A DNA stretch of 64,000 nucleotides from an uncultured Gammaproteobacteria bacterium (GTDB lineage: Bacteria; Patescibacteriota; Patescibacteriia; UBA1558; UBA10009): contig CAZPMS010000006.1 of NCBI GenBank assembly GCA_964588165.1, positions 3,425 to 67,424 of the forward strand. Direction: 5' to 3'. The position numbers were made by a program, and so were the translations under genes. Below, one piece after another: positions 644 to 57,544 of the stretch. Numbering within the stretch: position 1 is the stretch's first letter; the number at the start of each line of letters is the position of its first letter. The notes beneath the pieces were generated by a model. It did no database searches. It was not told the origin of the DNA and saw nothing but the letters and a program-made list of their open reading frames with translations.

Positions 644-720
644 AAGCTATAAAATTTTAACAGAACGGATGATAAAAATCAACCTACAAAATTTACCTAT
701 TTCCATATTAAATTTAGCAG

Positions 721-761
721 AAAATAAAAAACCCCGCACGTTTTGTTAATATTACGTGCGG
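721..761 (-). terminator. Rho-independent terminator after islet ORF 1
   Basis: Stem CCGCACGT (734-741) / ACGTGCGG (754-761). The A-run 721-731 on plus gives a U-run after the hairpin on minus. Confidence 0.6.
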
Positions 762-785
762 AGTCAAAGCTCTAGAAGCTGGACG

Positions 786-1316
786 TTACACTACAAAAGC
801 CGCGGGGTCGCCGTGGCTGAAGTCATAACCAAGCCAGTGTCCAAGCCAGCCCCACCTGTCGTCGTCCCAGTAGAGGAAACGAACGCTTAGGTCGCCATTT
901 GGGTAGCGATATATGGTACCCCAGAAGAAGATACGTTTACTTTTCCATTCCTCAGGAATAAGGTACGGATAAGCAAGTAGGTAGTCAAGGACATTGGCGT
1001 TGAAAACGGGCTTACCTTTCAGCTCCTTGTAAAGCTCATTGCCTTCAATTGCACTATCACCTTCTTGCTTCTTGGAAAGATAGAAAGAAACCCCGTTGGG
1101 ATCCCATTCCAGCTGTCCGCCATTGGTATGCTCTTCGACTTTCCAGTCTTTGGGCGCGAAAGGTTTGGCATCGCAATCAATAATACTGGTACCTCTTAGT
1201 AAAATCTGCAAGCCGGCCTTGGTAATTCTTCCGCTCTCAATTTGAGCGAAAAACTCTTTTAGCTGAGCGGGCGTTGGAGCTTTTGGACCCCAGTCAGCAG
1301 CATGTGATCTATGCAT
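786..1316 (-). CDS. hypothetical protein, Trp-rich (GC-rich islet ORF 1)
   Basis: 176-177 aa ORF. ATG at 1316 lies 6 nt after AGGAGG (the track start is GTG at 1319). G+C is clearly higher than the flanks. Own promoter and terminator. No family recognised. Confidence 0.6.
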   Translation of the reverse strand: MHRSHAADWGPKAPTPAQLKEFFAQIESGRITKAGLQILLRGTSIIDCDAKPFAPKDWKVEEHTNGGQLEWDPNGVSFYLSKKQEGDSAIEGNELYKELKGKPVFNANVLDYLLAYPYLIPEEWKSKRIFFWGTIYRYPNGDLSVRFLYWDDDRWGWLGHWLGYDFSHGDPAAFVV

Positions 1317-1458
1317 CACACACCTCCTATTTTAAACACTTTGCTAGAGGACTACCCCTTGTAGTCATAGCCAGAAATTACCATCCTTCGACAAAATATA
1401 GGATAACAAGTAACTTTTGGCTATAACTACTAGATTAAATGAACTTAAAGAATATATT

Positions 1459-1487
1459 ATACTAGCATATTTTACTTATTTTGTCAA
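1459..1487 (-). promoter_or_regulatory. sigma70-type promoter of islet ORF 1
   Basis: Minus strand TTGACA (1487-1482), N17, TAGTAT (1464-1459). This leaves a ~140-nt leader with a long-range stem GTTATAGCCA/TGGCTATGAC before AGGAGG. Confidence 0.6.
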
Positions 1488-1610
1488 GTTTTTATACCGT
1501 CTCTATTAATCATACTTATTATGGTCATGCTATGACTTTAGCTTTCACCTAACCAAACCCAAAGCCAATAAAAATCAACTAGTGGAATTAAAAAAAGCTT
1601 TTCCTCAATT

Positions 1611-1693
1611 GTCATTTCGAGCTCCGTCGAGAAATCCCGTTATAAACAGTACGTTTTAATAACACGGGATCCCTCCGCTCCGGTCGGGATGAT
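1611..1693. mobile_element. 83-bp MITE, GTCAT-TIR family, copy 1
   Basis: Left arm GTCATTTCGAGCTCCGTCGAGAAATCCCGTTA. Right arm reverse-complements to ATCATCCCGACCGGAGCGGAGGGATCCCGTGTTA. Centre contains AGTACGT. Same length and layout as 57437-57519. Confidence 0.75.
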
Positions 1694-1705
1694 AAAAATC
1701 AAATC

Positions 1706-1736
1706 AAAAAACGGGGAATAAAATCCCCGCTTTTTT
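1706..1736. terminator. bidirectional hairpin terminator
   Basis: CGGGGA-ATAAAA-TCCCCG (1712-1729) flanked by an A-run and a T-run. Sits just downstream of the stop of 1750-2283 (minus). Confidence 0.7.
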
Positions 1737-2504: not shown

Positions 2505-5075
2505 TTACTTATTAGCAGTGTCCTGCGAAAGCTTCATCCTTTCCAAAATCTCCTGTTCTACAATATTCCTGTCTCGGCCGTACTTTAAGCGCGAAGCTTC
2601 TTTAACTTTAAAAACGATTGATTTATCACCAGGCTTTGGCGGATAAGTTTTAATGTTAAAAGCCGGCACGTTCTGGTTATCTATTAATAATTTTAGATAG
2701 GCGTTAAACTTAGGAATATTTATTAAATCATATTCATTAAAAACAGGGTTAAACTGTTTAGCCACTAGTTCGGCATCATCCGGGCCTATCCTAAAGGAAG
2801 CCATTGTACCTACATTGCCAAAAACAGAATCCCTGATAGAAGTATCGTTGCCTTTTACCAGCTGGCCCACATATTGGTGCGCCACAGTTAAACTTAATTT
2901 ATATTTTCTGGCTTCTGATAAAATTATAGAAATGCTTTCGGTAATGAAATTTTGGAACTCATCTATATATAAATAATAATCGTGCCGCTTTTCTTCTGGC
3001 AATTCTACTCTGGAGAGGGCGGATATTAGAATCTTGCCAACAACTACCATGCCCAATAAATTTGCGGACATATCACCAATGGTCCCTTTGGCCAGTTTAA
3101 TTAGCAAAATCTTTTTCTTGTCCATTACTTCTCTAAAATTAAAAGAACTTTTTTGCTGGGCAATAATCGGCCTTAATAAATCGCTGGAGACAAATGGAGT
3201 TAATTTACTGGTGATATAAGGAACCATATTAGCCAATGATGCTTCGCCGCCGGCTTTTTCTGCCTCTTTCTCCCAAAAATCCCTTACCACCGGATTTACA
3301 CATTTAGAAAGCTTGTATCTCCTAAAATTAGGGTCGGCTAAAACCTTGGGTACTTCCAATAAAGTTGAGCCGGACACAGGATCTTCCATCATTAGCAGCA
3401 TGGCATTACGCATATACTGTTCAAACATTGGGCCACCGGTGGCTTTAAGGTCGTAGAGCTTATCAAAAATATTTATCATTTCGTTTATCACGAAAGTTTT
3501 TTGTTCCGGCGTGCTAAACTCCAGCATATTAAGCCCGATAGGCCTCTTGGTATCAGCTGGATCAAACAAAATTACATCGTCTACTCTGCCTTCGGGGATA
3601 TGCTCCATTACTGTTTCTATTAAATCTCCGTGGGGATCTATAACGCAAACGCCTTGGTTATTTTTAATGTCTTGGATTATCATGTTGGACATAAAAACAG
3701 ATTTACCGGTACCGGACTTGCCAATTATATACATATGCCTTAAGCGGTCCGAACTTTTAATTCTTATTGGCGCTTTTATTCCCCGATATAAATTCTCTCC
3801 CAAAATAAGGCCCTCTTTGGGTAAATTAAGAGGCGGCGTGGCCTTCCTGGCTTCTAACCAATTTATATTAGGTGTTTCTGAAGAAGGCAAAGGCAAGTGC
3901 CATAGGCTGGCCATTTCTTCAGCATTTAAAATTAAACTTTTTTTTGGAATAAAACTTCTATGGATAAAATTGGAGATCAATTTGGGAACTTTAATAAATT
4001 TTGCTTTTTTAAATCCATTGCCATATTCATAAATATTAAACTGAGAAAAAGCATTAATAATATTTTCTAAATAAGCCTCGGCCTTTTGCCTGTTTGGAGC
4101 AGAAACCACTACCCTTATGTTTGCTTCCATGCCTGCCTTGCTGGTTTTTTCTTCAATACCTTTTACCACCTCTGCTTCCATGGGAGAAAGCATTCTTCTT
4201 TCATCTGCTTCTTCTATATTTTTAGAAGCATCCTTTTTAGTTTTAAAAAAGCTTAAAGTGCCAACCACAGCGTTGGTTAGCTTATCAAAAATATTGCCTA
4301 AGCCTGCTTTCCTTAAAGCTACACTTAATTTTTTACCCTGTTGCATTTCTCTTGCTACAATTACTCCTTTGCGATGCCAGCTTTTATAAGCAGACCTAGC
4401 CACCAGCTGAATGGCTGCTCCTGATTCTTCACCTATTTTTGAAAAAGCATTGGTTAAAGCATTTAACGGATCGCTATCAGACTTTTTGTAAGTTTTAATT
4501 GGAAAAATAAAATCTCTGCCAAACTTTAAATAACTGCCAACCACCACGCCCTGGGCAGAAAAAATATTATAGTCTTCTAACTCCTCTATCTGTGCAAAAG
4601 GGTAAGAAGCATGGATTTGCTGTTCTAGGGTATCTTTTAAATAATCAGGAATGGCTACATAAAAATTAATCTTGCCATTTTGGGTTACGATTTCTACAGA
4701 AAAATGGTCTGATCTGCCAAAGATCCAGCTCTTTGTCCCTCTCTGGGCTTTAAGGCCGCCTAAAACAGAAAAAATGTTTTCCGCTACACCTATTTGTTCT
4801 TGGATTGTTTGGGGGGAATCATCGGCACCTTCTTTTTTTAAATTTTCTTTAGGCACGGTAATGAGCAAAATTTTCATTTTTAAAGCAGAAGGAACCTTAT
4901 TGCTTTTGGCTAAAAAACTTCTAACAATTAAAAAGGCGGTTATTAAAACCACCAACAAGATAAATATTAAAATAAAAGCTAAAAACCAAGTATTTTCCAA
5001 AAGGGCATTAGCCTGGGCAGTAAAAGGCGAATTTGACTCTATAACTATTTGCAAGGCAAACAAAGTTAAATACAT
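2505..5075 (-). CDS. VirD4/TraG-family (type IV coupling protein-like) P-loop NTPase with N-terminal membrane anchor
   Basis: 856 aa. N-terminal TM segments, Walker A IGKSGTGKS, Walker B-like YYLYIDEFQNF, then AHQYVGQL. Assignment by motif only. Confidence 0.65.
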   Translation of the reverse strand: MYLTLFALQIVIESNSPFTAQANALLENTWFLAFILIFILLVVLITAFLIVRSFLAKSNKVPSALKMKILLITVPKENLKKEGADDSPQTIQEQIGVAENIFSVLGGLKAQRGTKSWIFGRSDHFSVEIVTQNGKINFYVAIPDYLKDTLEQQIHASYPFAQIEELEDYNIFSAQGVVVGSYLKFGRDFIFPIKTYKKSDSDPLNALTNAFSKIGEESGAAIQLVARSAYKSWHRKGVIVAREMQQGKKLSVALRKAGLGNIFDKLTNAVVGTLSFFKTKKDASKNIEEADERRMLSPMEAEVVKGIEEKTSKAGMEANIRVVVSAPNRQKAEAYLENIINAFSQFNIYEYGNGFKKAKFIKVPKLISNFIHRSFIPKKSLILNAEEMASLWHLPLPSSETPNINWLEARKATPPLNLPKEGLILGENLYRGIKAPIRIKSSDRLRHMYIIGKSGTGKSVFMSNMIIQDIKNNQGVCVIDPHGDLIETVMEHIPEGRVDDVILFDPADTKRPIGLNMLEFSTPEQKTFVINEMINIFDKLYDLKATGGPMFEQYMRNAMLLMMEDPVSGSTLLEVPKVLADPNFRRYKLSKCVNPVVRDFWEKEAEKAGGEASLANMVPYITSKLTPFVSSDLLRPIIAQQKSSFNFREVMDKKKILLIKLAKGTIGDMSANLLGMVVVGKILISALSRVELPEEKRHDYYLYIDEFQNFITESISIILSEARKYKLSLTVAHQYVGQLVKGNDTSIRDSVFGNVGTMASFRIGPDDAELVAKQFNPVFNEYDLINIPKFNAYLKLLIDNQNVPAFNIKTYPPKPGDKSIVFKVKEASRLKYGRDRNIVEQEILERMKLSQDTANK

Positions 5076-5083
5076 ATATAATT

Positions 5084-5611
5084 TTACTTTCTATTTTTTA
5101 AACCTAATATCCTATCAGCTTTTATTTTAGCTTCTTGTTCTAAAAAAAACCTGTTTACTCCAGGAATAATTTTAAGCCAGTTTATAATTAGTTCAAATAT
5201 TTTTTGTGTTTTAATTTTGGCAGCGCCTAAGAGTTGTGAAATTTTTGTAGCTGTTTCTTCGCCGGCCTTTCTAAATTCCTTCTGTTTTTCGGGCGGCATT
5301 TTGCTATAAACTTCAGCAAGGCCAGTTTCTAAAACACTCTCTATTTGCTTAAAATAGACTCCTTTAGCAACTACTGGCTGTGTTTTTATTGGTTTTGCCG
5401 GAACTGAGATTGGCGGTTCCTCTTTTTTGCCTTTTTTAAATTCCTGGTCAGCCGGCAAAGCCTCTGTTTTAACCTCCTGTTTTTGTTCAGGAACTAAATC
5501 TGGAATTTCTAAAATCTCGGGCTGTTTTTTTATAGCCTCTTTTTTAGGCAACTCTGAAGCAACTTCCAGCCCTGCCAGCGGATCTTCTATTTTATCTTGA
5601 TTTTTATCCAT
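5084..5611 (-). CDS. hypothetical protein (Lys/Glu/Pro-rich N-terminus)
   Basis: 175 aa ORF, 8 nt upstream of the ATPase gene on the same strand. No recognisable domain. Confidence 0.5.
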   Translation of the reverse strand: MDKNQDKIEDPLAGLEVASELPKKEAIKKQPEILEIPDLVPEQKQEVKTEALPADQEFKKGKKEEPPISVPAKPIKTQPVVAKGVYFKQIESVLETGLAEVYSKMPPEKQKEFRKAGEETATKISQLLGAAKIKTQKIFELIINWLKIIPGVNRFFLEQEAKIKADRILGLKNRK

Positions 5612-5655
5612 CTTAGCTTTTATTATACAATATTATTGGTTAATCTTCAATAAAA

Positions 5656-5664
5656 TGATATAAT
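5656..5664 (+). promoter_or_regulatory. extended -10 (TGaTATAAT) candidate for corA
   Basis: TGATATAAT lies 44 nt upstream of the corA ATG. No clear -35. Confidence 0.45.
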
Positions 5665-5707
5665 TTAAATGTAAAATACTACACACTACCAACTACAAAC
5701 TAATACC

Positions 5708-6640
5708 ATGCCAAAATCAAAAAACATCAAAGAGATTAAAACCAATAAAATGAAATGGATTTACTTAACCAATAACTCAAAAAGGGAAATTGATTATTTA
5801 AGGAACCATTTTTCTTTCCACCCATTAGATCTAGAAGATTGCCTTTCTCCGGCTCAACGGCCAAAGCTGGATGAATACCAAAACTATATTTTTATGATAA
5901 TGTCTTTCCCCTATTTTAACCGTTCTACCAGAGAAATACTGGCATCGGAAGTGGATTTTTTTATTGGCCCAAATTATTTAGTAACCGTTTCTGACGGCAA
6001 GCTGGCACCTTTAGCCAATTTTTTTGAACAATGCCAAATTAATGATTCTTACCGAGAAAAGTTTTTAGTTGATAGCCCGGCTTTTTTACTTTCAGAAATC
6101 TTAAATAAGCTTCAGCTTTACCTCCACCCAATGCTGGACCATATTCATGTTGATATCGAAAATGTCCAAAAAGTTATATTTGCCGGCTATGAAAAAAAGA
6201 TGGTTAAAGAAATTTTAATGGTTAAACGAAATATTATCAGCTTTAGAAAAATTATGCAGGCCCATAAAAACGTTATCCGCAAGCTCATTTCTAAAAAAGA
6301 AAAATTCTTTATTCCCAACACGGCTAATGTTTATCTTTCCAATAATCTGGAACAATCTAAAGATGTTTGGGATAATCTAGAAAGCCTTAAAGAAAATGTA
6401 GAAGCTTTGCATACAACCAACGAATCTTTAATTTCATTCAGGTTAAACGACATCATGAAAATTTTAACCATGATTTCTGTGATACTCCTGCCGATTAACT
6501 TAATTGCTTCCATTTTTGGCATGAACACGCCAATTATGCCTTTTATAAATAATCCAAACGGCTTTTATATTATTTTAGGCCTAATGTGCTGTTTGATAGT
6601 GTCTTTCTTCTTTTTCTTTAAAAAGAAAACTTGGCTATAA
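5708..6640 (+). CDS. corA: magnesium/cobalt transporter CorA
   Basis: 310 aa with two C-terminal TM helices and the signature FGMN (ASIFGMNTPIMPF). Confidence 0.85.
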   Translation: MPKSKNIKEIKTNKMKWIYLTNNSKREIDYLRNHFSFHPLDLEDCLSPAQRPKLDEYQNYIFMIMSFPYFNRSTREILASEVDFFIGPNYLVTVSDGKLAPLANFFEQCQINDSYREKFLVDSPAFLLSEILNKLQLYLHPMLDHIHVDIENVQKVIFAGYEKKMVKEILMVKRNIISFRKIMQAHKNVIRKLISKKEKFFIPNTANVYLSNNLEQSKDVWDNLESLKENVEALHTTNESLISFRLNDIMKILTMISVILLPINLIASIFGMNTPIMPFINNPNGFYIILGLMCCLIVSFFFFFKKKTWL

Positions 6641-6695
6641 ACTAGGTGGTAGTTAGTAGTTAGTAGATTCTTGATTAATTAAATATTGTTATATT

Positions 6696-6733
6696 AAAAA
6701 AGCCGTCCCGGATAAAACCGAAGGGCGGTTTTT
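6696..6733. terminator. bidirectional terminator between convergent corA and 6757-7173
   Basis: GCCGTCCC...GGGCGG stem (6702-6728) with an A-run before and a T-run after. Confidence 0.6.
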
Positions 6734-6756
6734 AATTTTAATCTACTCACTACAAC

Positions 6757-7173
6757 CTACTCACTAAATACAACTATCTCCTCATTAGTTTCTTCCAACA
6801 TATACCTTAAAGTATATACTTGGCCGTCGGACCAATAATAATAAGAAATATTTTCTGAAGCTGATGGATCTTGAGGAACTTCACCTAAAGCATTAACTAA
6901 AGCTTCATAACCATTGCTGGCTTCATCATTTTGGAAAGGAAAATTGTTATTTTGGCTATTATACTCTGTTAACTTGTTTTGAACAGCTTGAATATCTTCT
7001 TTTCTCTTAATATCTCTTTGTTTTACCAATTCTTTTTCATGATCTATGCCAGCCATAACTCCAGTACTAACCAAACCGATAATAGCTAAAGCTAACGGAA
7101 TAACTAAGATAACAGCACCTTTTTTATCTCGCCATGAGTAAATTTGAGAAGCGGATTTATTAGTTAAATTCAT
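6757..7173 (-). CDS. hypothetical membrane-anchored protein, pilin/pseudopilin-like C-terminal region
   Basis: 138 aa with an N-terminal hydrophobic helix. The RDIKRKEDIQAVQNKLTEYNSQNNNFP stretch resembles type IV pilin-like globular-domain openings. No G/FTLIE cleavage motif. Confidence 0.4.
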   Translation of the reverse strand: MNLTNKSASQIYSWRDKKGAVILVIPLALAIIGLVSTGVMAGIDHEKELVKQRDIKRKEDIQAVQNKLTEYNSQNNNFPFQNDEASNGYEALVNALGEVPQDPSASENISYYYWSDGQVYTLRYMLEETNEEIVVFSE

Positions 7174-7273
7174 ATTTTATTAGCTATATTTATATAGGTA
7201 ACTGAGGCATTATACTCTTTCTAAGAAAATCGTCAAGTTATCCTTGAAGTTAATTAAAATACATCCACGAGCT

Positions 7274-7312
7274 ATCTGCGGGTAATCTGGCGGGTAATCT
7301 GTGTTATCTGCG
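7274..7312 (+). repeat. phased heptamer array A (ATCTGCG, ATCTGGC, ATCTGTG, ATCTGCG)
   Basis: Heptamers start at 7274, 7285, 7297 and 7306 (spacing 11, 12, 9). The array ends 7 nt before TTGACA at 7319. Confidence 0.75.
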
Positions 7313-7318
7313 ACAGCA

Positions 7319-7347
7319 TTGACAAACCTGCTATTTTATGATAAGCT
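7319..7347 (+). promoter_or_regulatory. sigma70-type promoter of islet ORF 2
   Basis: TTGACA (7319-7324), N17, TAAGCT preceded by TG (extended -10-like). The leader contains CAACAAAAC-ATAGAGAGG before the ATG at 7397. Confidence 0.55.
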
Positions 7348-7396
7348 GATTTATTAAATTCTTTAACAACACCAACAAAACATAGAGAGGTCTACC

Positions 7397-8260
7397 ATGA
7401 GAAGAAGGTGGATAAAAATTGACGGTACTGATACCGTTATCCGCGGTAAAACGGTAACTTTGAATTTAGAGTTACCGAGTGAATTCCAAAACGTTCACAG
7501 TCGTGATTTGGTGATAAACTGTGATGAAGGAAATGTACTGATTTGTGAAAGGGATGGTATTCACATCGCACCGACCATTGAAGTTTTTCCTGATACTCCT
7601 GATGTTCTTACTTTGGAAGTTAAGGGTAAGCTCATTCATCAACCAACAACAAGGACTGATTCTGCAAAGGAAACCGGCAGAGGAGATCCTTACAAAGTTG
7701 GCGAGCCACAGGTGGAACCGATTTTCGCCGATCCTGATCCGGAAGCTGAAGAAGAAGCAGAACTGGAACAGATTGGTGAAAGAATTACTATCACCCAAGA
7801 AATGCCGGTATACGAAACCACTGAAATCCATCACTTTGAGGCTGAAGAAAATTATTCTGCACGCTTTACTTTCAGGGTGATTGATTCTCGGCCGCTGATC
7901 AAACGTAACGAACTCACTGAGCTTCGGTTTGAGCTACCTGATGGTTTCGGCAAAATCAATGAACATCATCTACCAAAGATTTTGGGAAAGGGCGCCTACG
8001 TTACCGAGTGGCAACAGATAGGCCAAGCCTTAACTGTTTCGGTGAAGACCAAAAAGTCTTCACCCGAGGAAATTACTCTGCGGGTTCGCGGCATGTGTGA
8101 AGGCGAACATACTGAGGAATTCTTCAAAATTGATGTAGAGCCGGAAACTGAAAAGGTTAAGAGAAAAACTCTTATAGCCTTGGCAATACTTCTGCTGATA
8201 GCTGCCAGCTTTGTTTCGGGCATATACATTTCTACTCTTTTCCCTCTGTTATTTCAGTAG
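7397..8260 (+). CDS. hypothetical tail-anchored protein with two beta-rich repeats and an acidic linker (GC-rich islet ORF 2)
   Basis: 287 aa. Internal repeat (..LTLEVKGK.. / ..ITLRVRGM..), DPDPEAEEEAELEQ linker and a single C-terminal TM helix. High G+C. SD GAGAGG. Confidence 0.6.
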   Translation: MRRRWIKIDGTDTVIRGKTVTLNLELPSEFQNVHSRDLVINCDEGNVLICERDGIHIAPTIEVFPDTPDVLTLEVKGKLIHQPTTRTDSAKETGRGDPYKVGEPQVEPIFADPDPEAEEEAELEQIGERITITQEMPVYETTEIHHFEAEENYSARFTFRVIDSRPLIKRNELTELRFELPDGFGKINEHHLPKILGKGAYVTEWQQIGQALTVSVKTKKSSPEEITLRVRGMCEGEHTEEFFKIDVEPETEKVKRKTLIALAILLLIAASFVSGIYISTLFPLLFQ

Positions 8261-8277
8261 ACCAAGTTAATTTCATT

Positions 8278-8311
8278 CCGTCGGTTAACACTAATAACCG
8301 GCGGTTTTTTA
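8278..8311 (+). terminator. Rho-independent terminator of islet ORF 2
   Basis: CCGTCGGTTA / TAACCGGCGG stem followed by TTTTTT. Confidence 0.7.
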
Positions 8312-8359
8312 TTTAAAAAAACTTAAAAATAAAAAATAGTAGATAGATATCCGCGGACT

Positions 8360-8409
8360 ATCAGTGATTAATCAGTGATCGTTCCGCGAATATCAGTGAA
8401 TTATCTATG
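8360..8409 (+). repeat. phased heptamer array B (ATCAGTG x3, ATCTATG)
   Basis: Heptamers start at 8360, 8371, 8392 and 8403 (spacing 11, 21, 11). The array ends 7 nt before TTGACA at 8416. Confidence 0.7.
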
Positions 8410-8415
8410 AAAAAC

Positions 8416-8444
8416 TTGACAAAATCAATAAATTATGCTAAATT
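8416..8444 (+). promoter_or_regulatory. sigma70-type promoter of islet ORF 3
   Basis: TTGACA (8416-8421), N17, TAAATT (8439-8444). The leader has the palindrome AATGTTgttgAACATT (8456-8471), ACATAGACAAAAC, and SD AAAGGAG. Confidence 0.65.
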
Positions 8445-8515
8445 ACAATGTTAAAAATGTTGTTGAACATTGACAAAAAAACGCTAAACATAGACAAAAC
8501 AAAGGAGTACTGAAA

Positions 8516-10882
8516 ATGGCTACCACCGCAAAAGAAGTAGCTGGCGCAGCCACTGCTACCTCAGCTGCCGCAGCCAGAGAACAATTCCGTTTGGAACTGT
8601 GGCAAGTTTTCCGCGACATTCTTATCGGCAAAGACAAGTGGGTTGATGAAGTTGCCAGAACCCATTACGAAAACCAATTCAAGGAACAGTTTTCGGAGAA
8701 ATACGACCTACTTCTGAAAATGCTTCATCCCGACAACCTAAGTACTACCGACCAGCATTGCCTGGATATGGTGGCCTTGGAACATGCCAAGTTGGCCGAT
8801 AAATCTTTGCACGAAAAGGATACGGCTAAGCTCATACCAGGGATGTTTAAAATCTTCTGCGACAAGTTGGAAGAAGTTATTGACTTGGCTACCGAAGGTG
8901 ATGAGTTTGACGTCATCAAAGCGCACACACTGCTCCGGGACAAACGCTGGATCGGTCAGGGCTTCTGGGCTCAAAGGCTAAAGGAAAACATGGGTGAAAT
9001 TCTCAAGCTGGGTTGGATTTCTGAAGGCCTGAGAAGATTTATCCAATCTCCTATCGTTCATGACTTCATGGAAGGAGCTGAACAGCCTTCCATCGATTTC
9101 TTTGAATGGGCCCAGCAGCATTACAACCTCGCAGCCAAAATACGCAGCGGAGCACCCAGTAATCGCCGTTACAGCAACAACCCCTTCAAAAACTTTTTTG
9201 TAGGGCTGCAGTTGATGATTGGTGTTGCTTGGAACTATCTGATGGTAGGCTTGGGCAAGGTGAACAAGTTAAGGCAACAGAATTGGCACAGGATTGGCAA
9301 AAGGACCTTCTGGACAACCATAATTGTTCTGGGTGTGGTCATTGCTTTCCTGATACTGCTGGGATTAGGAATCCACAACAGCTACTTCAAAAGTACCAAC
9401 TACCTTTGGCTTATTGCGACTGCTGGAATTCTACTGTTCATCATCTTTGCTACACTCAAGATTATTGAGGCTGCACTGGGATTGGCCATCTTCACGGTAC
9501 GCTTGGCTTTTGCTGTTATAGCTAGGCCGTCCCTCTGGACCGTTGAACAAGGCGGTAAGTTTATCTGGCAAGTTGGTACTTGGCCAATTGAATTTGGCTT
9601 TGACGCTATAACCGACACCTTTAAGGGGCTATTAATGTTCTTAGGGGTTGATATTGAGGACATTGAACGGTTAAGCGACAGAAAATTCGAACTGACTGAA
9701 GCTCAGAAATCTGCTTGGGGAGATTTAAGTAAACGAACAGAAGACTTGATGAAAGGCGCCCGCCAAACCAGTATTTTCATCACTGTCGGCTTCAAGTATT
9801 TTGCGGCGCTGATAACTTCCACTTCTTTCCTGATCTTGGCCAAATGGCAGTTTTCTGGCGTAGACTCCAGTGCGGTTTTGAACAATCCGGTTTTTGCTCT
9901 GCTGATTCTTTTCCTGCTGGGCTCGCTTTTCACCCATTTTGGAATCCGTGAATATCAGGCAAGAATTGCTAAAGCTACCGGCTTAGATGACAAAAAGCGC
10001 TCCTGGCGAACAGTTAACCGGATTGCTTTTGCTTGCCTTGTTCTGCTGATTCTGGCTGAATGGCGATTTGAAACCGTCACTAACGTCTGGTACTACAATG
10101 CCAGGCAATCAGCAGCCATAACCGAACACGCAAACCAAGAAAGGAGGCTTAAAACTGCGATTTGGGAAAAAAATCGCAGTGCAACAATTCATCGTGGAGC
10201 AACTGTATTTTTGGCAGAAACCGATACAGAAAACGATGATGAGTCTTACATCGTCATAACCGACTCAACTTTCAGCCGGCCAAATCCGAATGTGGTTTAT
10301 GTGGTAAAACCTGCCCTTGAGCAAAACGGCCAGGTATTTACTATCTACAACCCCATTGACCAAAATGGCATCAGGCAAGCAAGCCTGCAATACGCTGTTT
10401 TGGCTCAATATCTGGATCAGGTTACTCCAAACGAGGCAGCCCGCTTGCTGGCTACCAAAACTGAGGCAAAGCCATCATTAATGCCTAGCTCCATTACTTA
10501 CAATCCGAGCAAAGGCATGGCAGTGCTTGGGTATGTTAACACCGATGATGTTCTTTATCTGGATCCTGTCCAACTGTCACTACTTAGCTGTCCTGAAGAA
10601 AGCGATATTGGACTGAAAGGTACCCATGGTACACCGCGTAGCCGCCATGAAGATTGGCCTGAAGAATTCGTTGATCAGCGCATGCGGCTTGGCGCCCTGT
10701 TGGTGAAATTACCAGCTTATGGTTGGCAACCTTTGTACCAAGCCGAGTCATTCAACATCCGTGGCAGCGGAACAGCCATGGTCTGCGTTAATACGCGGCG
10801 TGGGCTTTTTGGCCTTAACGAAGGAGGAATGGTAGATATTGCTATCAGGCTGGAAACCTATGCCGAAATGGCACAACGTTAA
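8516..10882 (+). CDS. hypothetical polytopic membrane protein, 788 aa (GC-rich islet ORF 3)
   Basis: Long uninterrupted ORF at roughly 45-60% G+C in sampled stretches. Soluble N-terminal ~270 aa, ~8 hydrophobic helices, soluble C-terminal ~250 aa. No family recognised. Confidence 0.65.
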   Translation: MATTAKEVAGAATATSAAAAREQFRLELWQVFRDILIGKDKWVDEVARTHYENQFKEQFSEKYDLLLKMLHPDNLSTTDQHCLDMVALEHAKLADKSLHEKDTAKLIPGMFKIFCDKLEEVIDLATEGDEFDVIKAHTLLRDKRWIGQGFWAQRLKENMGEILKLGWISEGLRRFIQSPIVHDFMEGAEQPSIDFFEWAQQHYNLAAKIRSGAPSNRRYSNNPFKNFFVGLQLMIGVAWNYLMVGLGKVNKLRQQNWHRIGKRTFWTTIIVLGVVIAFLILLGLGIHNSYFKSTNYLWLIATAGILLFIIFATLKIIEAALGLAIFTVRLAFAVIARPSLWTVEQGGKFIWQVGTWPIEFGFDAITDTFKGLLMFLGVDIEDIERLSDRKFELTEAQKSAWGDLSKRTEDLMKGARQTSIFITVGFKYFAALITSTSFLILAKWQFSGVDSSAVLNNPVFALLILFLLGSLFTHFGIREYQARIAKATGLDDKKRSWRTVNRIAFACLVLLILAEWRFETVTNVWYYNARQSAAITEHANQERRLKTAIWEKNRSATIHRGATVFLAETDTENDDESYIVITDSTFSRPNPNVVYVVKPALEQNGQVFTIYNPIDQNGIRQASLQYAVLAQYLDQVTPNEAARLLATKTEAKPSLMPSSITYNPSKGMAVLGYVNTDDVLYLDPVQLSLLSCPEESDIGLKGTHGTPRSRHEDWPEEFVDQRMRLGALLVKLPAYGWQPLYQAESFNIRGSGTAMVCVNTRRGLFGLNEGGMVDIAIRLETYAEMAQR

Positions 10883-43506: not shown

Positions 43507-43519
43507 ATTTTACCTCTAC

Positions 43520-43600
43520 GTCATTCCGAGCGAGGCTAAACCCTCGCCTTAACGTTTAAATTATTAAAAAATTGTTTAACGAAGAATTCAGCTTATCATT
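43520..43600. mobile_element. degenerate GTCAT-TIR MITE (copy 3)
   Basis: The left arm GTCATTCCGAGCGAGGCTAAACCCTCGCCTTAACG is clear. The right arm TAACGAAGAATTCAGCTTATCATT is only weakly related. Total length is ~81 bp, like the 83-bp copies. Confidence 0.4.
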
Positions 43601-43632: not shown

Positions 43633-43875
43633 TTACTCAACTGATTGACGTTCAATATCTTCCTCATGACTGGTAACAGTATCGCCCCAATCTCCATCTG
43701 TTTGATCAAGAGTTGGCTTGGTTCCGGTAGCCCTGTCTTTTTTAGGGGGTTGTTGAGTATCTTCCAAAAAAGCAGCGGCAACCTCCGGATCATTTGGTAC
43801 ACCAGATTGATCTAATAAATCTTTAGCCTCTGGTGGTATCTCCCCTCCGTTTTCAAATGATTTTCCGTCAAACAT
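43633..43875 (-). CDS. hypothetical acidic Pro/Asp/Glu-rich protein
   Basis: 80 aa. Intermediate G+C and no SD. Bracketed by GTCAT-type arms at 43520 and 43924 in the same orientation. Confidence 0.4.
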   Translation of the reverse strand: MFDGKSFENGGEIPPEAKDLLDQSGVPNDPEVAAAFLEDTQQPPKKDRATGTKPTLDQTDGDWGDTVTSHEEDIERQSVE

Positions 43876-43923
43876 ATTTTTATTGGTTAATTAATTATTA
43901 TTTTTTTTGTATTCTACTACTAC

Positions 43924-44299
43924 GCCATTCCGAGCTTGTCGAGGAATCCCGTTATTCCGGAAAGACGATTTTTAAATTCTTATTAACTCGCTTTATTAAA
44001 TCCAATTTTTTAAAACGACTCCATTTTTTTAACTGTTTTTCTCTATCAATCGCTTCAATAATACTTTCATAACTTTCAAAATAAACTAATTCATCAACAT
44101 TATATTTTTTAGTAAATCCTTTTAATTTTAATTGATGTTCATCTAATCTTCTAGCTAAATCATTGGTAACTCCTATATAAATCACTGTTCTCCTATGATT
44201 CATTAAAAAATAGACGTAAAATTCTTTTTGTAACACATTTTAAACTTTCCTACCCTGATACATTTATTAACGGGATCTCTCCACCTTGGTCGAGATGAC
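43924..44299 (-). mobile_element. GTCAT-TIR element carrying a GIY-YIG gene (putative autonomous partner of the 83-bp MITEs)
   Basis: Plus-strand left arm GCCATTCCGAGCTTGTCGAGGAATCCCGTTA (43924-43954). The right arm 44268-44299 reverse-complements to GTCATCTCGACCAAGGTGGAGAGATCCCGTTA. The ORF stop TAA lies inside the left arm. Confidence 0.7.
43952..44236 (-). CDS. small GIY-YIG nuclease-family protein (COG2827-like)
   Basis: 94 aa. FYVYFLMN..VIYIGVTNDLARRLDEH..FTKKYNV..LVYFE. Confidence 0.85.
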   Translation of the reverse strand: MLQKEFYVYFLMNHRRTVIYIGVTNDLARRLDEHQLKLKGFTKKYNVDELVYFESYESIIEAIDREKQLKKWSRFKKLDLIKRVNKNLKIVFPE

Positions 44300-45736: not shown

Positions 45737-46354
45737 ATGAAGAAAGTTTTTGGAGTCTTAGCCGTTCTTTTATGCTTTCTGCTGTTGGTAGCTACCTTTG
45801 CCTTCCCATTCTGGAACGATAATCGGTTGGCCGTCAAAGAGCGCAGCGAAGCCATTGTAGCTGCTCAGGAATTCACCGTTGAAGGCCAATTGCTGGCTAC
45901 CGTTCACTATTCACTGGAAGGTATTGAAACCAAGGGAGAATTTAACCAGACTTTCATTGAACTGGTAAACCAACAAATTCCCTCCTACAACGACGCCGGC
46001 CAACGGCTGATAACCTATTGCTATATAGCCGGCCAAGAATCGTCTTCACAGCAAGAAATCTTATTGGCCAAACAGAACCTTAAGCCTTGCCAGAATTCGA
46101 TTATGATATTTTTGGCAAATTCCGAAGGGAAAACAAATTGCTACTTGATTATTGATAATTATTGGTCGAGCAACATGCCTGCAATTATGGGAATGTTTAT
46201 GAAGCCGAATACTGGACCGCTAACAGAGACTTTTACAGCTTTGATGATTGGCGCAACAATAAAAATTCCTTCAACTGTTTTATTGACCGGTGGCTGGATT
46301 CCCAATAACCTGGTGTATTTCTCCGATGAACAAATCCCTTATTTAACCAGTTAA
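45737..46354 (+). CDS. hypothetical secreted/anchored protein (GC-rich islet ORF 5)
   Basis: 205 aa. N-terminal signal/anchor MKKVFGVLAVLLCFLLLVATFAF. SD GGAG. Higher G+C than the flanks. Confidence 0.55.
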   Translation: MKKVFGVLAVLLCFLLLVATFAFPFWNDNRLAVKERSEAIVAAQEFTVEGQLLATVHYSLEGIETKGEFNQTFIELVNQQIPSYNDAGQRLITYCYIAGQESSSQQEILLAKQNLKPCQNSIMIFLANSEGKTNCYLIIDNYWSSNMPAIMGMFMKPNTGPLTETFTALMIGATIKIPSTVLLTGGWIPNNLVYFSDEQIPYLTS

Positions 46355-46372
46355 TTATTTGACCACCTCTAT

Positions 46373-46410
46373 CCGCCAAGCTACTTATGCCTGGCGGTTT
46401 TTATTTTTTT
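46373..46410 (+). terminator. Rho-independent terminator of islet ORF 5
   Basis: CCGCCAAG...CCTGGCGG stem followed by TTTTTATTTTTTT. Confidence 0.7.
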
Positions 46411-46558
46411 ATAAAACTTTTAATTTCTTCTGAAGTTAATTCCCGCCAATTTCCAGGCGGTAAATCTTCCATTTTAATGCTACCAACTCTGATTCTTTTC
46501 AAACTGACCACTTCATAGCCTATATTTTCTACCATCCGCCTTATTTGCCTATTCCAGC
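46401..46558 (-). pseudogene. orphan 3'-terminal fragment of the rluB-type pseudouridine synthase gene
   Basis: An open frame without a start: GWNRQIRRMVENIGYEVVSLKRIRVGSIKMEDLPPGNWRELTSEEIKSFIKK*. A ~103-bp block (46456-46558) is near-identical to 47193-47295 inside the live gene. Confidence 0.85.
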
Positions 46559-46562
46559 CCTA

Positions 46563-46591
46563 TTGACAATATTTTTAATATATGATATTAT
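46563..46591 (+). promoter_or_regulatory. sigma70-type promoter of islet ORF 6
   Basis: TTGACA (46563-46568), N17, TATTAT (46586-46591). Starts 5 nt after the end of the duplicated rluB block. Confidence 0.65.
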
Positions 46592-46619
46592 TTATTATTC
46601 GATCTTTCTTTATTGACCA

Positions 46620-46640
46620 TTTAGTACTAATAGTACTAAA
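46620..46640. promoter_or_regulatory. 21-bp near-perfect palindrome in the islet-6 leader (operator-like)
   Basis: TTTAGTACTAATAGTACTAAA (two TAGTACTA palindromes) between the -10 and the SD. Confidence 0.45.
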
Positions 46641-46682
46641 CTTCAAAAGAGTGAAAAGTGCCAAACCACAGTGAGGGAAATT

Positions 46683-47096
46683 ATGAGGTATCCGAACTCT
46701 TTTCTGAAGAATGGTCCGCTTTATGTGGTCATTCTAGCTGCTCTCGTTTTCGTAACGGGGTTTGTTCAGTACAACAGCGACAGCCATCACTTCAGCATTC
46801 AGCACGAAACTTTCGTCGCAGGCGACAACCAGGCCTCATTGATCGGCTACACAGTTGCTGATCTGGAAAATTATGGGCAACGTTACCTTGAAGCCAAGTA
46901 TCCTGGGACATCCCAACTGCCACGCTTCGTAAACGTGGCATTAGGAATGATACCTGTACTACTTCTTCCACCAAACATTTTTTGGTCGCCAGCAATCATT
47001 CTTACATTTATGCTATGCGGAATCTGCGGAATATTGCTTACCGGAATAATTTCTAACCGCAATATGAATTGCCTCAAACCAACTTTATCACAATAA
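46683..47096 (+). CDS. hypothetical membrane protein (GC-rich islet ORF 6)
   Basis: 137 aa from the ATG at 46683, with SD GAGGGA (the track starts at GTG 46671). About 3 TM helices. Higher G+C. Confidence 0.5.
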   Translation: MRYPNSFLKNGPLYVVILAALVFVTGFVQYNSDSHHFSIQHETFVAGDNQASLIGYTVADLENYGQRYLEAKYPGTSQLPRFVNVALGMIPVLLLPPNIFWSPAIILTFMLCGICGILLTGIISNRNMNCLKPTLSQ

Positions 47097-47125: not shown

Positions 47126-47821
47126 TCATCCTCTGAAAGCCTCGGCAAATGCTGAGGCTTTTTCTTTTTCTGTAAGATTACGCCACTTACCGGGCGGTAA
47201 ATCTTCCATTTTAATGCTACCAACTCTGATTCTTTTCAAACTAAGCACCTCATAGCCTATATTTTCTACCATCCGCCTTATTTGCCTATTCCAGCCTTGG
47301 TGGACTACAATTCGTAATTTATTATCCGAAACTCTTAAAATCTTATCGGCCTTGGCAATTCCCTCCCTCAACTTGATGCCCTGTCTCAATTTTTTAATTG
47401 ACTGTTCATTAATTACTTGTTCAGTTTCTACTAAATATTCTTTTTCATGTTTGAACTTGGGATGCATTATTTTATTGGCAAAGTCGCCGTCATTAGTAAG
47501 GATAATCAAACCGGATGATTCTACATCTAACCTGCCAACCGGATAAATTCTTTCTTTAATATCAATCTTTTCTATAATATTATCTCTTTTTGTCTCATCA
47601 GTTGTGCAAATAACACCAACCGGTTTATGGTAAGCAATGTAAATTGATGACTGATGATTAATGATTAATTTTTTTCCGACCTTAACTTCATCAGTCTCAT
47701 CAACCTGGCTACCAAGTTCGGCTATCTCATCATTAATAAAAACCTTGTTTTGTTTTATTAGTTCATCAGCTTGCCTGCGTGAACAGTGTCCGCTTTCGGC
47801 TAAATATTTGTTTATTCTCAT
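47126..47821 (-). CDS. rluB: 23S/16S rRNA pseudouridine synthase, RsuA/RluB family
   Basis: S4 domain MRINKYLAESGHCSRRQADELI, catalytic VGRLDVESSGLIILTNDG. The C-terminal ~10 aa derive from islet sequence. Confidence 0.88.
   Translation of the reverse strand: MRINKYLAESGHCSRRQADELIKQNKVFINDEIAELGSQVDETDEVKVGKKLIINHQSSIYIAYHKPVGVICTTDETKRDNIIEKIDIKERIYPVGRLDVESSGLIILTNDGDFANKIMHPKFKHEKEYLVETEQVINEQSIKKLRQGIKLREGIAKADKILRVSDNKLRIVVHQGWNRQIRRMVENIGYEVLSLKRIRVGSIKMEDLPPGKWRNLTEKEKASAFAEAFRG
47139..47170 (+). terminator. terminator of islet ORF 6, embedded in the rluB 3' coding end
   Basis: GCCTCGGCA-AAT-GCTGAGGC followed by TTTTTCTTTTTC. Its reverse complement encodes the last residues (ASAFAEAFRG) of the live rluB gene. 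Confidence 0.7.
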
Positions 47822-47830
47822 ATTTAATGA

Positions 47831-47846
47831 TTGATGAATAATGATT
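47831..47846 (-). repeat. 16-nt upstream motif AATCATTATTCATCAA (copy 3, before rluB)
   Basis: Exact copy, 10 nt upstream of the ATG at 47821. Confidence 0.6.
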
Positions 47847-47854
47847 AATGAATT

Positions 47855-47936
47855 ATCTGTGAGTAATCCCTACCTTCCGGCAGGCAGGCGTGGGTCATCT
47901 GGTGGGTAATCAGTAAATATCTGTGACTTATCCGTG
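47855..47936 (+). repeat. phased heptamer array E (ATCTGTG, ATCTGGT, ATCAGTA, ATCTGTG, ATCCGTG) with a GC hairpin insert
   Basis: Heptamers start at 47855, 47897, 47909, 47919 and 47930. The hairpin CCTACCTTCCGGCAGGCAGG lies at ~47868-47887. The array abuts TTGACC at 47937. Confidence 0.65.
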
Positions 47937-47965
47937 TTGACCCTATTTTAACAGATTTAACTATA
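47937..47965 (+). promoter_or_regulatory. candidate promoter facing element F copy 2
   Basis: TTGACC (47937-47942), N17-19, ACTATA/TATATA. No plus-strand ORF follows. Confidence 0.4.
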
Positions 47966-47985
47966 TAAAACTAATTTTTTCACAT

Positions 47986-48077
47986 ATAACACGAATGCTC
48001 GCTATTCTTTTACAGATTACACACTAATCCGTGCGCTATTAGTGTTTTATCCGTAAGCAACAGTGTTATTAGTTATT
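47986..48077 (+). repeat. noncoding element F, copy 2 (possible sRNA or cis element)
   Basis: Homologous to 2404-2497 (see that feature). Lies between candidate promoter E and the islet-7 terminator. Confidence 0.55.
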
Positions 48078-48087
48078 TACGCATAAA

Positions 48088-48122
48088 TGAAAAAGCCACC
48101 CATTATAGAGATATGAGCGGCT
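48088..48122 (-). terminator. Rho-independent terminator of islet ORF 7
   Basis: Minus strand AGCCGC...GUGGCU stem followed by UUUUUC. Confidence 0.6.
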
Positions 48123-48150: not shown

Positions 48151-48645
48151 TTACTTTTTCAGCTTCTTGCCGAAGCCTTCATTGTCAAGAAATGTGAGCG
48201 CTTCAATCCAGAGAATGGCCTTAGCCATTTCTTGTGCGACACACTTCACGTTTCGACCACCAGGACCGTAAGTGAATTTACTGACACCCAGCGGGTATTG
48301 AGTACTGAAAGAGGCAATAATACCCTCAGTCATTTTCTGTTTTCCGCTGGTCTCGATAATTTGAGTTACGATTGGCCACTTAAAGTCATCACGGGTATGG
48401 TTGGATACCACTGCCCCGACTACCATCCCAAGGTTCCAGTTGACATCGCGTAGATGATCAAGCCCTTTGCCCTCAGCAAGCCACTCGTTGACCACCGTTT
48501 TTACTATTGGCCAGCTCCATTGCCAGCAACCAACTCCCACCAGAAGCAAATCACGATTGTCATGTACTCGAATGCCAGCCTTAGAAAACTTTATAAAGTT
48601 TTCTTTTAAAGCCCTTTCCTCTCGATTCTTCTCTTTGAAAGTCAT
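48151..48645 (-). CDS. hypothetical protein (GC-rich islet ORF 7)
   Basis: 164 aa, preceded by AGGAGGAG 3 nt upstream... of the ATG. Higher G+C. No family recognised. Confidence 0.55.
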   Translation of the reverse strand: MTFKEKNREERALKENFIKFSKAGIRVHDNRDLLLVGVGCWQWSWPIVKTVVNEWLAEGKGLDHLRDVNWNLGMVVGAVVSNHTRDDFKWPIVTQIIETSGKQKMTEGIIASFSTQYPLGVSKFTYGPGGRNVKCVAQEMAKAILWIEALTFLDNEGFGKKLKK

Positions 48646-57393: not shown

Positions 57394-57436
57394 AAATTTA
57401 TGAATAAAAAATGTTATGGAAAACTTTACTTCTATC

Positions 57437-57519
57437 TGTCATCCTGAGCTTGCCGAAGGATCCCGTTACTTTTAGTACGTGCTATATAATACGGGATTCC
57501 TCAATGTAACTCAGAATGA
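57437..57519. mobile_element. 83-bp MITE, GTCAT-TIR family, copy 2
   Basis: Left arm GTCATCCTGAGCTTGCCGAAGGATCCCGTTA. The right arm reverse-complements to GTCATTCTGAGTTACATTGAGGAATCCCGTA. Centre contains AGTACGT. The outer flanks AAACTTTACTT / AAGTAAAGTTT are also inverted. Confidence 0.8.
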
Positions 57520-57544
57520 CAAAAAGTAAAGTTTTACCTGATTA

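Follow-up and report, generated by a model that had tools for sequence, protein, structure and literature searches.

In a 64,000-nucleotide stretch of contig CAZPMS010000006.1 from an uncultured groundwater Patescibacterium (hereafter the window), the spacer between dnaX, which encodes the clamp-loader tau/gamma subunit, and its upstream neighbour p177 carries a single-gene islet together with a miniature inverted-repeat transposable element (MITE), and the two are bracketed by a 16-bp direct repeat. We found that islet and MITE are an insertion within the dnaX promoter, that the boundaries of this insertion can be placed to the base from the empty sites of relatives, that the repeat is of native origin and that the cargo is a single gene equipped with promoter and terminator. 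The explanation that we consider probable is that a foreign block was inserted in the −35 region of dnaX and that the repeat is the native target, duplicated.

The 16-mer GGATGATAAAAATCAA occurs exactly on the plus strand at positions 667–682 and 1687–1702 (its reverse complement is TTGATTTTTATCATCC), and no other copy was present in the window even when two mismatches were allowed. An earlier, sequence-only reading of this DNA had described the pair correctly, together with what lies between the copies: a terminator, a 176-aa open reading frame (ORF), a TTGACA-N17-TAGTAT promoter, a structured leader and the MITE were all located there. That reading had allowed that the 16-mer could be common in the AT-rich spacers of this genome; beyond the window, 913 kb of related loci likewise lacked it, contigs of the same strain excepted. 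We also detected a third, partial copy, ATAAAAATCAAC, at 1568–1579 (plus strand), which is identical to positions 672–683 and had been missed before. It lies 31 bp past the inner end of the MITE, so that the three copies delimit a unit of 124 bp (MITE plus 31 bp) and one of 896 bp (the cassette). The 11-mer core of the repeat was found four times in the window, where 0.44 occurrences were expected, and three of the four are at this locus in one orientation. A bare direct repeat of 16 nt is not improbable, since 42 of 200 Markov shuffles (21%) contained at least one exact 16-mer direct-repeat pair within 2 kb, and the window itself holds 11 such pairs, about three of them apparently accidental. 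The significance of the pair must therefore rest on comparison with relatives.

A protein-guided scan of one genome per species yielded 76 loci encoding p177, a conserved 177-aa gene (1750–2283 in the window, minus strand). At 58 of these loci dnaX follows p177 directly, usually with a VirD4-like gene preceding p177, and the p177–dnaX spacer of relatives measures mostly 10–340 bp, compared with 1106 bp in the window. Empty sites were recognized in L084–L091 (p177 90% identical, spacer 86 bp), in L092 (84% identical) and in L008, L093 and L094 (78% identical, spacer about 110 bp). Every close empty site showed the same order of elements, namely the p177 stop codon, a terminator hairpin, a single TTTGATTTTTAAC(N3)C-TTTTTG(T/C)TA(A/G)AAT, about 10 nt and the dnaX ATG. 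The p177 terminator of the window (1706–1735, minus strand) corresponds to the hairpin that in relatives stands immediately before the single TTTGATTTTTA. The sequence-only reading had proposed that relatives would carry one copy of the repeat upstream of dnaX, and L084–L092, L008, L093 and L094 do so. The site of L084, TTGATTTTTAACAGCC, matches TTGATTTTTATCATCC at 14 of 16 positions; GGATGAT in the window and GGCTGTT in the nearest relative are of equal length and differ by two substitutions. Deleting one 16-mer and the interval between the copies shortened the spacer from 1106 bp by 1020 bp to 86 bp, the same length as in L084, and the window thus shortened aligned end to end with the empty sites, its terminator, −35 box, N17 and −10 box being collinear with theirs. 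Because the two copies sit exactly on both insertion boundaries, as set independently by the empty sites, we count the pair as real.

The left, dnaX-proximal copy (667–682) is, by prediction, the −35 box and 10 nt of the adjoining spacer of the native σ70-type dnaX promoter (654–682, minus strand), which consists of TTGATT at 682–677, a 17-nt spacer and an extended −10 element, TGTTAAAAT, whose hexamer TAAAAT lies at 659–654. A promoter scan returned TTGATT-17-TAAAAT with the TG and beginning exactly at base 682, and TTGATT-N17-TA(A/G)AAT was found at equal distance from the ATG in L084, L092 and L008. Since the layout of −35 box, N17 and −10 box and the distance to the ATG are kept in these three empty sites, we conclude that the left copy is native promoter sequence and not a decayed MITE arm. 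The interpretation of this copy as an arm remnant must be given up, given the 14/16 match and the same spacing in the closest relative. The right, p177-proximal copy (1687–1702) does open with the end of the MITE right arm, as had been stated: its first 7 nt, GGATGAT, are the last 7 nt of the MITE (1687–1693), and the remaining 9 nt are native T-rich sequence beyond the p177 terminator. The promoter scan found no −10 box after the right copy, because the MITE follows there. A reading of the site as a dif site used by Xer recombinases, as in integrative mobile elements exploiting Xer (IMEX), was considered since TTCTGTTAAAAT resembles a XerD arm; it was rejected, as that sequence is the extended −10 element at a conserved distance from the dnaX ATG and no GC-skew switch was seen.

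Target duplications were also observed at other islets. An islet ORF at 46671–47096, which possesses a promoter, lies between the two copies of a 136-nt direct repeat (46424–46559 and 47161–47296, spaced by 737 bp), whose 104-nt core is about 96% identical. The downstream copy constitutes the 3′ end of a pseudouridine-synthase gene (47126–47821), and the upstream copy provides another intact 3′ end (…GWNRQIRRMVENIGYEVVSLKRIRVGSIKMEDLPPGNWRELTSEEIKSFIKK*), complete with stop codon and terminator; it seems that the insertion at 46.4–47.3 kb supplied a substitute for the gene end. In L101, where a homologue of the islet gene lies after map, the map 3′ end has been duplicated over about 430 bp (2415–2830 versus 3737–4150, 85% identity) to either side of the homologue; the −35 box TTGACA of the promoter downstream is part of the duplicated segment. 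Duplication lengths thus range from 11–12 and 16 nt at the dnaX islet through about 105–136 nt at 46.4 kb to about 430 nt in L101. The common denominator is a target duplication that spares the host gene or promoter, not the presence of MITE arms.

On the explanation that we favour, the ancestral spacer of about 86 bp would have consisted of the p177 terminator, TTGATTTTTA..-N-TAAAAT and the dnaX ATG. A block of 1004 bp (1020 bp with one repeat copy) has been inserted into the −35 region, the target is duplicated at both ends and the promoter geometry is preserved; read from the p177 side, the block comprises a MITE of a GIY-YIG-associated family at its edge, 31 bp of unassigned sequence, the 11–12-nt target copy, a strong promoter, the leader hairpin, the gene and its terminator. 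The downstream copy, which keeps 17 nt to TAAAAT, would still drive dnaX, and the upstream copy, which remains joined to the p177 terminator, would be inert. We infer that the duplication was made by the integration step itself, for which two routes can be envisaged. It could have arisen by fill-in of a staggered break, or by a single crossover in a short segment of identity with an incoming, possibly circular cassette whose origin was the equivalent promoter in a related lineage; the cases with a replacement 3′ end fit the crossover route best. A circle excised via the repeat would join ...TTTTGTAGG-TTGATTTTTATCATCC-CGACC.... The presence of three repeat copies points to two insertions, one after the other, at a single hotspot. 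The 7 nt that overlap the MITE are most simply taken as microhomology at the junction, where a fragment that ended in the MITE terminus met native sequence already alike at five of seven positions, and not as what is left of an arm; fragments with such an end would be expected if the GIY-YIG enzyme cuts there.

Several observations weigh against this explanation. The ATCATCC of the right copy is MITE sequence by homology to other arms, so that a pure target duplication needs a native site that already resembled the MITE end (ancestral AACAGCC, 5/7); ATCATCC is itself infrequent, with 21 occurrences per 128 kb of both strands. The locus records a single event: the identical arrangement, with 0 mismatches over 1200 bp, was present on seven contigs from different samples, and a metagenome pattern scan for the promoter returned three contigs only, all from empty-site relatives, and thus no variant allele of this strain. 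Neither a donor nor a circular junction nor a recombinase came to light. The repeat lengths listed above do not fit one enzyme with a fixed stagger, and no empty site was found for the islet at 46.4–47.3 kb, the nearest pseudouridine-synthase homologues being 66–69% identical and located on 1-kb contigs. With one event and no polymorphism the alternatives are inseparable, and we rank them below target duplication.

Weighing these alternatives requires a description of the MITE. The 83-bp element at 1611–1693 belongs to a GTCAT...ATGAC family with the arms GTCATTTCGAG... and ...CGGGATGAT, in which each half consists of GTCAT, a GC-rich hairpin and ATCCCGT(T/A); a central loop separates the two halves, the second of which mirrors the first and terminates in ATGAC. 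Both 83-bp copies of the window (1611–1693 and 57438–57520) have the properties that define a MITE, being small, free of ORFs and bounded by terminal inverted repeats. GTCATYYCGAG was found seven times versus 1.15 expected, and arms of the family also occur in L010, L016, L044 and L053. A full-length copy at 43924–44299 carries in its central loop a 94-aa GIY-YIG ORF (43952–44236, minus strand; Pfam 4.8e-17). To judge from their sequences, the 83-bp copies look like ORF-less derivatives of this GIY-YIG-bearing element, and the GIY-YIG protein may be what moves the GTCAT...ATGAC elements. A search for target duplications found no direct repeats flanking the copies at 57438, at 43924 and in L010, L016 and L044. 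The 5′ flanks of the family are T-rich, with T at −1 in about 10 of 15 ends. Two copies lie inside the loops of flanking inverted repeats (window 57418–57540 and L044 1090–1190; AAAACTTTACTT...AAGTAAAGTTTT and CCCTGACTTTT...AAAAGTCAG), which suggests that the family inserts into hairpins or terminators. In the literature searched, including that on UPF0213 and COG2827, no published account of GIY-YIG-associated MITE-like elements was found.

The sequence-only reading held that acquisition of the islet is mechanistically tied to the MITE family. Part of this stands, as the insertion is real and a MITE terminus lies at one of its junctions; as a general rule the tie is unsupported and the left copy is native. 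The MITE may still have a limited mechanistic role. In the corresponding explanation, the mobilizing enzyme, presumably the GIY-YIG protein, would have cut at the MITE end and moved the MITE with adjacent DNA, and the left 16-mer would be partly MITE-derived; variants include one-ended or 'pack-MITE'-like transposition and capture of a fragment broken at the MITE end. We regard it as unlikely. In its favour, one of the junctions coincides exactly with the MITE terminus, which has 7 nt in common with the left copy; among these are the only two positions at which the left copy departs from the nearest empty site, both changes making it identical to the MITE end. The low frequency of ATCATCC points the same way. 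An 80-aa ORF at 43633–43875, between aspS and asnS, is similarly bracketed by CTACG[T/C]CATTCCGAGC at 43516–43531 and 43920–43935 (15/16 match), made up of 4 nt of flank and the 12 nt that form the end of the GIY-YIG element. Moreover, L010 and L016 carry independent MITE copies in the same p177–dnaX spacer, that of L016 beside a 1.5-kb insertion. Against a MITE-driven acquisition, the left copy and the native promoter are orthologous and agree in their −35/−10 spacing. The dnaX-proximal end shows no arm-like sequence: an arm hidden Markov model (HMM) gave nothing in 640–760 at E ≤ 1, no second arm is present, and the sole similarity is the 7-nt ATCATCC, which stands in direct and not inverted orientation. 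Other copies of the family have no target duplication. When we looked in the window for other islets abutting GTCAT arms, three of the five other high-GC or orphan islets had no arm nearby (7397–10882, 45737–47096 and 48151–48645); the cassettes of L096, L099 and L101 are also free of MITE arms. The left copy of the repeat at the 80-aa ORF, a solo 'arm' at 43520, is continued by another hairpin and escaped detection by the arm HMM.

A separate possibility, which we consider quite unlikely, is that two or three unrelated events are superimposed, with a cassette arriving first and creating the 11–12-nt duplication (1568–1579 and 672–683) and a MITE, with or without the 31 bp, later inserting in the T-run of the upstream copy, a kind of site for which the family seems to have a preference; the extra 5–7 nt of identity would then be coincidence. 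The three core copies, the T-rich 5′ flanks of the MITE family and the independent MITEs in the spacers of L010 and L016 all agree with this sequence of events, and precise removal of the MITE turns the upstream copy into TTGATTTTTAA, the ancestral form in all three relatives. The cost is a chance match of 5–7 nt between the MITE end and the native promoter; in addition, the 31 bp separating the MITE from the middle copy are left unexplained, and a duplication around MITE plus 31 bp was not seen at other copies. An accidental pairing, in which an AT-rich 16-mer simply recurs in two spacers, would be in keeping with the shuffling result and with the roughly three apparently accidental pairs of the window; it is effectively refuted, because the copies match to the base the insertion boundaries given by three independent empty sites, the deletion restores the 86-bp spacer, a third copy is present and the 16-mer is found nowhere else in the window or the related loci. 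Site-specific integration by a recombinase acting in trans, in the manner of cis-mobilizable elements (CIMEs), integrative mobilizable elements (IMEs) or Xer/IMEX-like accretion, would make the 16-mer an att core and the copies attL, attI and attR of a tandem array. Three direct copies do bound the 124- and 896-bp units, and other islets carry replacement target 3′ ends, which are typical of integrase insertion into gene ends. We nevertheless judge this very improbable, since no integrase is encoded in or beside the islet (one ORF, no Pfam match), the repeats differ in length and sequence at every islet so that no common att site emerges, and the site is a conserved promoter and not dif, with no switch in GC skew.

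The p177–dnaX spacer is a recurrent insertion hotspot. In 13 of the 58 lineages it is enlarged to 0.56–2.8 kb by unrelated cargo (including L016 at 4387–5899, L066 at 6372–9198, and L052, L056, L059, L042 and L050). Repeat brackets were sought in 15 other lineages with enlarged p177–dnaX spacers, and two candidates were set aside. In L066 a 13-mer, one copy of which falls within an ORF, appears to be coincidental, and the repeat in L016 is a pair of related terminators, two cassettes there ending in near-identical terminators. In L028 (6606–7010) the spacer is filled by a tandem array with units of about 102 nt (ATCACCGAATAAATTCGGTGATACCCC...).

The islet gene itself (786–1316, minus strand) encodes a Trp-rich protein of 176 aa with no Pfam match. 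It is transcribed, by prediction, from the TTGACA-N17-TAGTAT promoter with a TG before the −10 box (1459–1487, minus strand; promoter scan), and it is followed by an intrinsic-terminator-like hairpin (731–764, minus strand) with a T-run after it on the minus strand. The ORF has a GC content of 0.49 and 0.50 at third codon positions (GC3), compared with about 0.36 and 0.30 in its neighbours. Its 1731 homologues are almost all unnamed Patescibacteria proteins, and the best non-self identity among the matches listed was at most 65%. On the basis of its composition, its own promoter and terminator and the lack of a close homologue, we consider the ORF foreign. The idea that it and p177 are paralogues, both being about 177 aa, was rejected for want of any similarity.

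Between promoter and ORF lies a structured 5′ leader (1340–1433, minus strand), in which a long hairpin (1358–1433) is followed by GGTAGTCCTCTAGCAAAG. The hairpin folds better than shuffled sequences (z = −2.95), and hairpin and GGTAGTCC-CT(A/G)GCA motif are kept upstream of homologues in other genomes, with the consensus of a long hairpin ...ATAGCC-AAAAG...GGCTATGRCTAC and then GGTAGYCC-CTRGCA. The leader was located at about 2850–2925 in L096, about 2880–2950 and 4284–4350 in L101 and about 2860–2960 in L099; it also precedes a second family, of 199–205 aa, that shares the N-terminal 40 residues. Rfam searches in gathering and E-value modes returned nothing for the leader, the MITE or the spacer. 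Given the lack of an Rfam match, the leader may be an undescribed cis-regulatory RNA. A mini-palindrome, GTCATGCTATGAC, at 1524–1536 may be a collapsed copy of a leader-type hairpin such as that of L101 (GTCATAGC...GCTATGAC).

Three homologues of the islet gene were found in three contexts, one after infB beside a retroelement, one in an array of small ORFs and one after map in a ribosomal-protein/secY/adk/map cluster. The L096 homologue, P0013, has its final 124 nt (3401–3524) repeated 474 bp downstream (3875–3998), beside genes for bAvd and a reverse transcriptase (RT; RVT_1). Of the 16 mismatches between this variable repeat (VR) and the RT-proximal template repeat (TR), 12 have an A in the TR. 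Such adenine-biased mismatches are the hallmark of a diversity-generating retroelement (DGR), and the L096 homologue is accordingly regarded as a DGR target. The Trp/Tyr-rich C-terminus of the window protein aligns with the L096 VR (window 786–920). No RT, Avd or TR was detected in the 64-kb window by tblastn and blastn. An AlphaFold model of the window protein (predicted local distance difference test score, pLDDT, 87) gave weak structural matches only, mostly to C-type-lectin-like folds, including those of TvpA and Mtd, and the modelled protein probably has such a fold. The islet gene is best described as an orphan (or remote-target) member of a DGR-target, lectin-like family.

dnaX, the 176-aa ORF, p177 and the VirD4-like gene (2505–5075) are all on the minus strand. 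The window includes the 5′ part of dnaX (1–643, ATG at 641–643; Pfam DNA_pol3_delta2, 6.7e-51), and the source contigs contain the complete gene of 524 aa. About 1.4 kb past the dnaX 3′ end, the source contig (L001/L002, 10606–11472) carries genes for an IS1595-family transposase and a P63C-domain protein. L084 has an extra methyltransferase-like gene of 173 aa (3319–3840) between the VirD4-like gene and p177; the window lacks it, and positions 2284–2504 carry short repeats instead. Clusters of the short repeats TTATC(C/T)GTG, AATCAGTGA and GGGTAATCTG were noted at 2400–2500, 7265–7320, 8345–8410 and 47840–48090, where they precede the promoters of several high-GC or orphan genes. The TTATC(C/T)GTG-type clusters may be operator arrays or another repeat family.

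The locus offers a base-precise view, before and after, of how a streamlined uncultured bacterium of the candidate phyla radiation (CPR) came to house a new gene in the promoter of dnaX, an essential gene of replication, while keeping that promoter, and it illustrates that a repeat of transposon-derived look can be native regulatory DNA. The recurring pattern of islets bounded by target duplications and of a p177–dnaX hotspot could help to explain gene flux in Patescibacteria. Three poorly described features are flagged by the analysis, namely the GIY-YIG-associated MITE family, the conserved leader RNA and the orphan member of a DGR-target family. It is tempting to generalize that Patescibacteria exchange recombinase-less, promoter-bearing single-gene cassettes, many of them DGR-type and lectin-like with a shared leader RNA, which would integrate at promoters or gene 3′ ends through short shared sequences, duplicating 11–430 nt and leaving the host gene functional, with the termini of the GIY-YIG-associated cloverleaf MITEs as preferred points of breakage or joining. 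The proposal is speculative, and we think it unlikely to hold.

Small genomic islets and CIMEs are known to be flanked by duplications of the target site or att core, and some integrative elements enter gene 3′ ends and supply a replacement end. The dnaX islet resembles them in having a native direct repeat at both ends that is single in empty sites, in sparing the function of the flanking gene or promoter, in its three-copy tandem arrangement and in the second islet with a replacement 3′ end. It differs in that no integrase or att consensus is present, the repeat length varies from 11 to 430 nt between islets, the cargo is one gene with its own promoter and terminator, and the target is a promoter and not a tRNA gene or gene end. 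Homology-facilitated or microhomology-mediated illegitimate recombination (HFIR) and Campbell-type single crossover also integrate foreign DNA. The use of short identity (7–16 nt here, 104–430 nt at the other islets) and the duplicated homologous segment flanking the insert agree with these processes; by contrast, a 16-nt stretch falls short of what RecA usually requires, no donor could be named, and classical HFIR usually replaces or deletes sequence and does not duplicate it.

One-ended mobilization is a property of ISEcp1-type elements. Tn3-derived inverted-repeat miniature elements (TIMEs), which are non-autonomous, likewise mobilize genes and form mosaic transposons (PMC4133298). The dnaX islet resembles these cases in having a MITE at the edge of a mobilized block with a passenger gene, whereas here the MITE stands alone, lacking a partner or a substitute for the other inverted end, the terminus is overlapped and not abutted by the repeat, the MITE family makes no target duplications, and the associated protein is a GIY-YIG nuclease and not a DDE transposase. 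As in GIY-YIG homing-endonuclease genes, the 94-aa GIY-YIG ORF is the only gene of one full-length copy of the repeat family; unlike them, it is set within structured terminal inverted repeats, is accompanied by what look like short ORF-less, MITE-like derivatives and does not lie in an intron or intein. DGRs are reported to be abundant in CPR bacteria (PMC8144416). The DGR variable proteins Mtd and TvpA have a C-type-lectin fold; the link to such proteins lies in the homologue P0013, with its 124-nt VR/TR pair beside bAvd and RT genes and its adenine-specific mismatches, and in the alignment of the C-terminus with that VR. In contrast, the window gene has no RT, Avd or TR within 64 kb and its product no Pfam domain. 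The GIY-YIG cloverleaf MITE family, the conserved leader, the orphan gene of a DGR-target family and the recurrence of target-duplicating cassettes may be newer than the repeat itself. The event is of a known kind, the insertion of a small islet with duplication of its target, and it is a clear example of that kind, unusual in having the promoter of an essential gene as its target and in its unusually clean empty sites.

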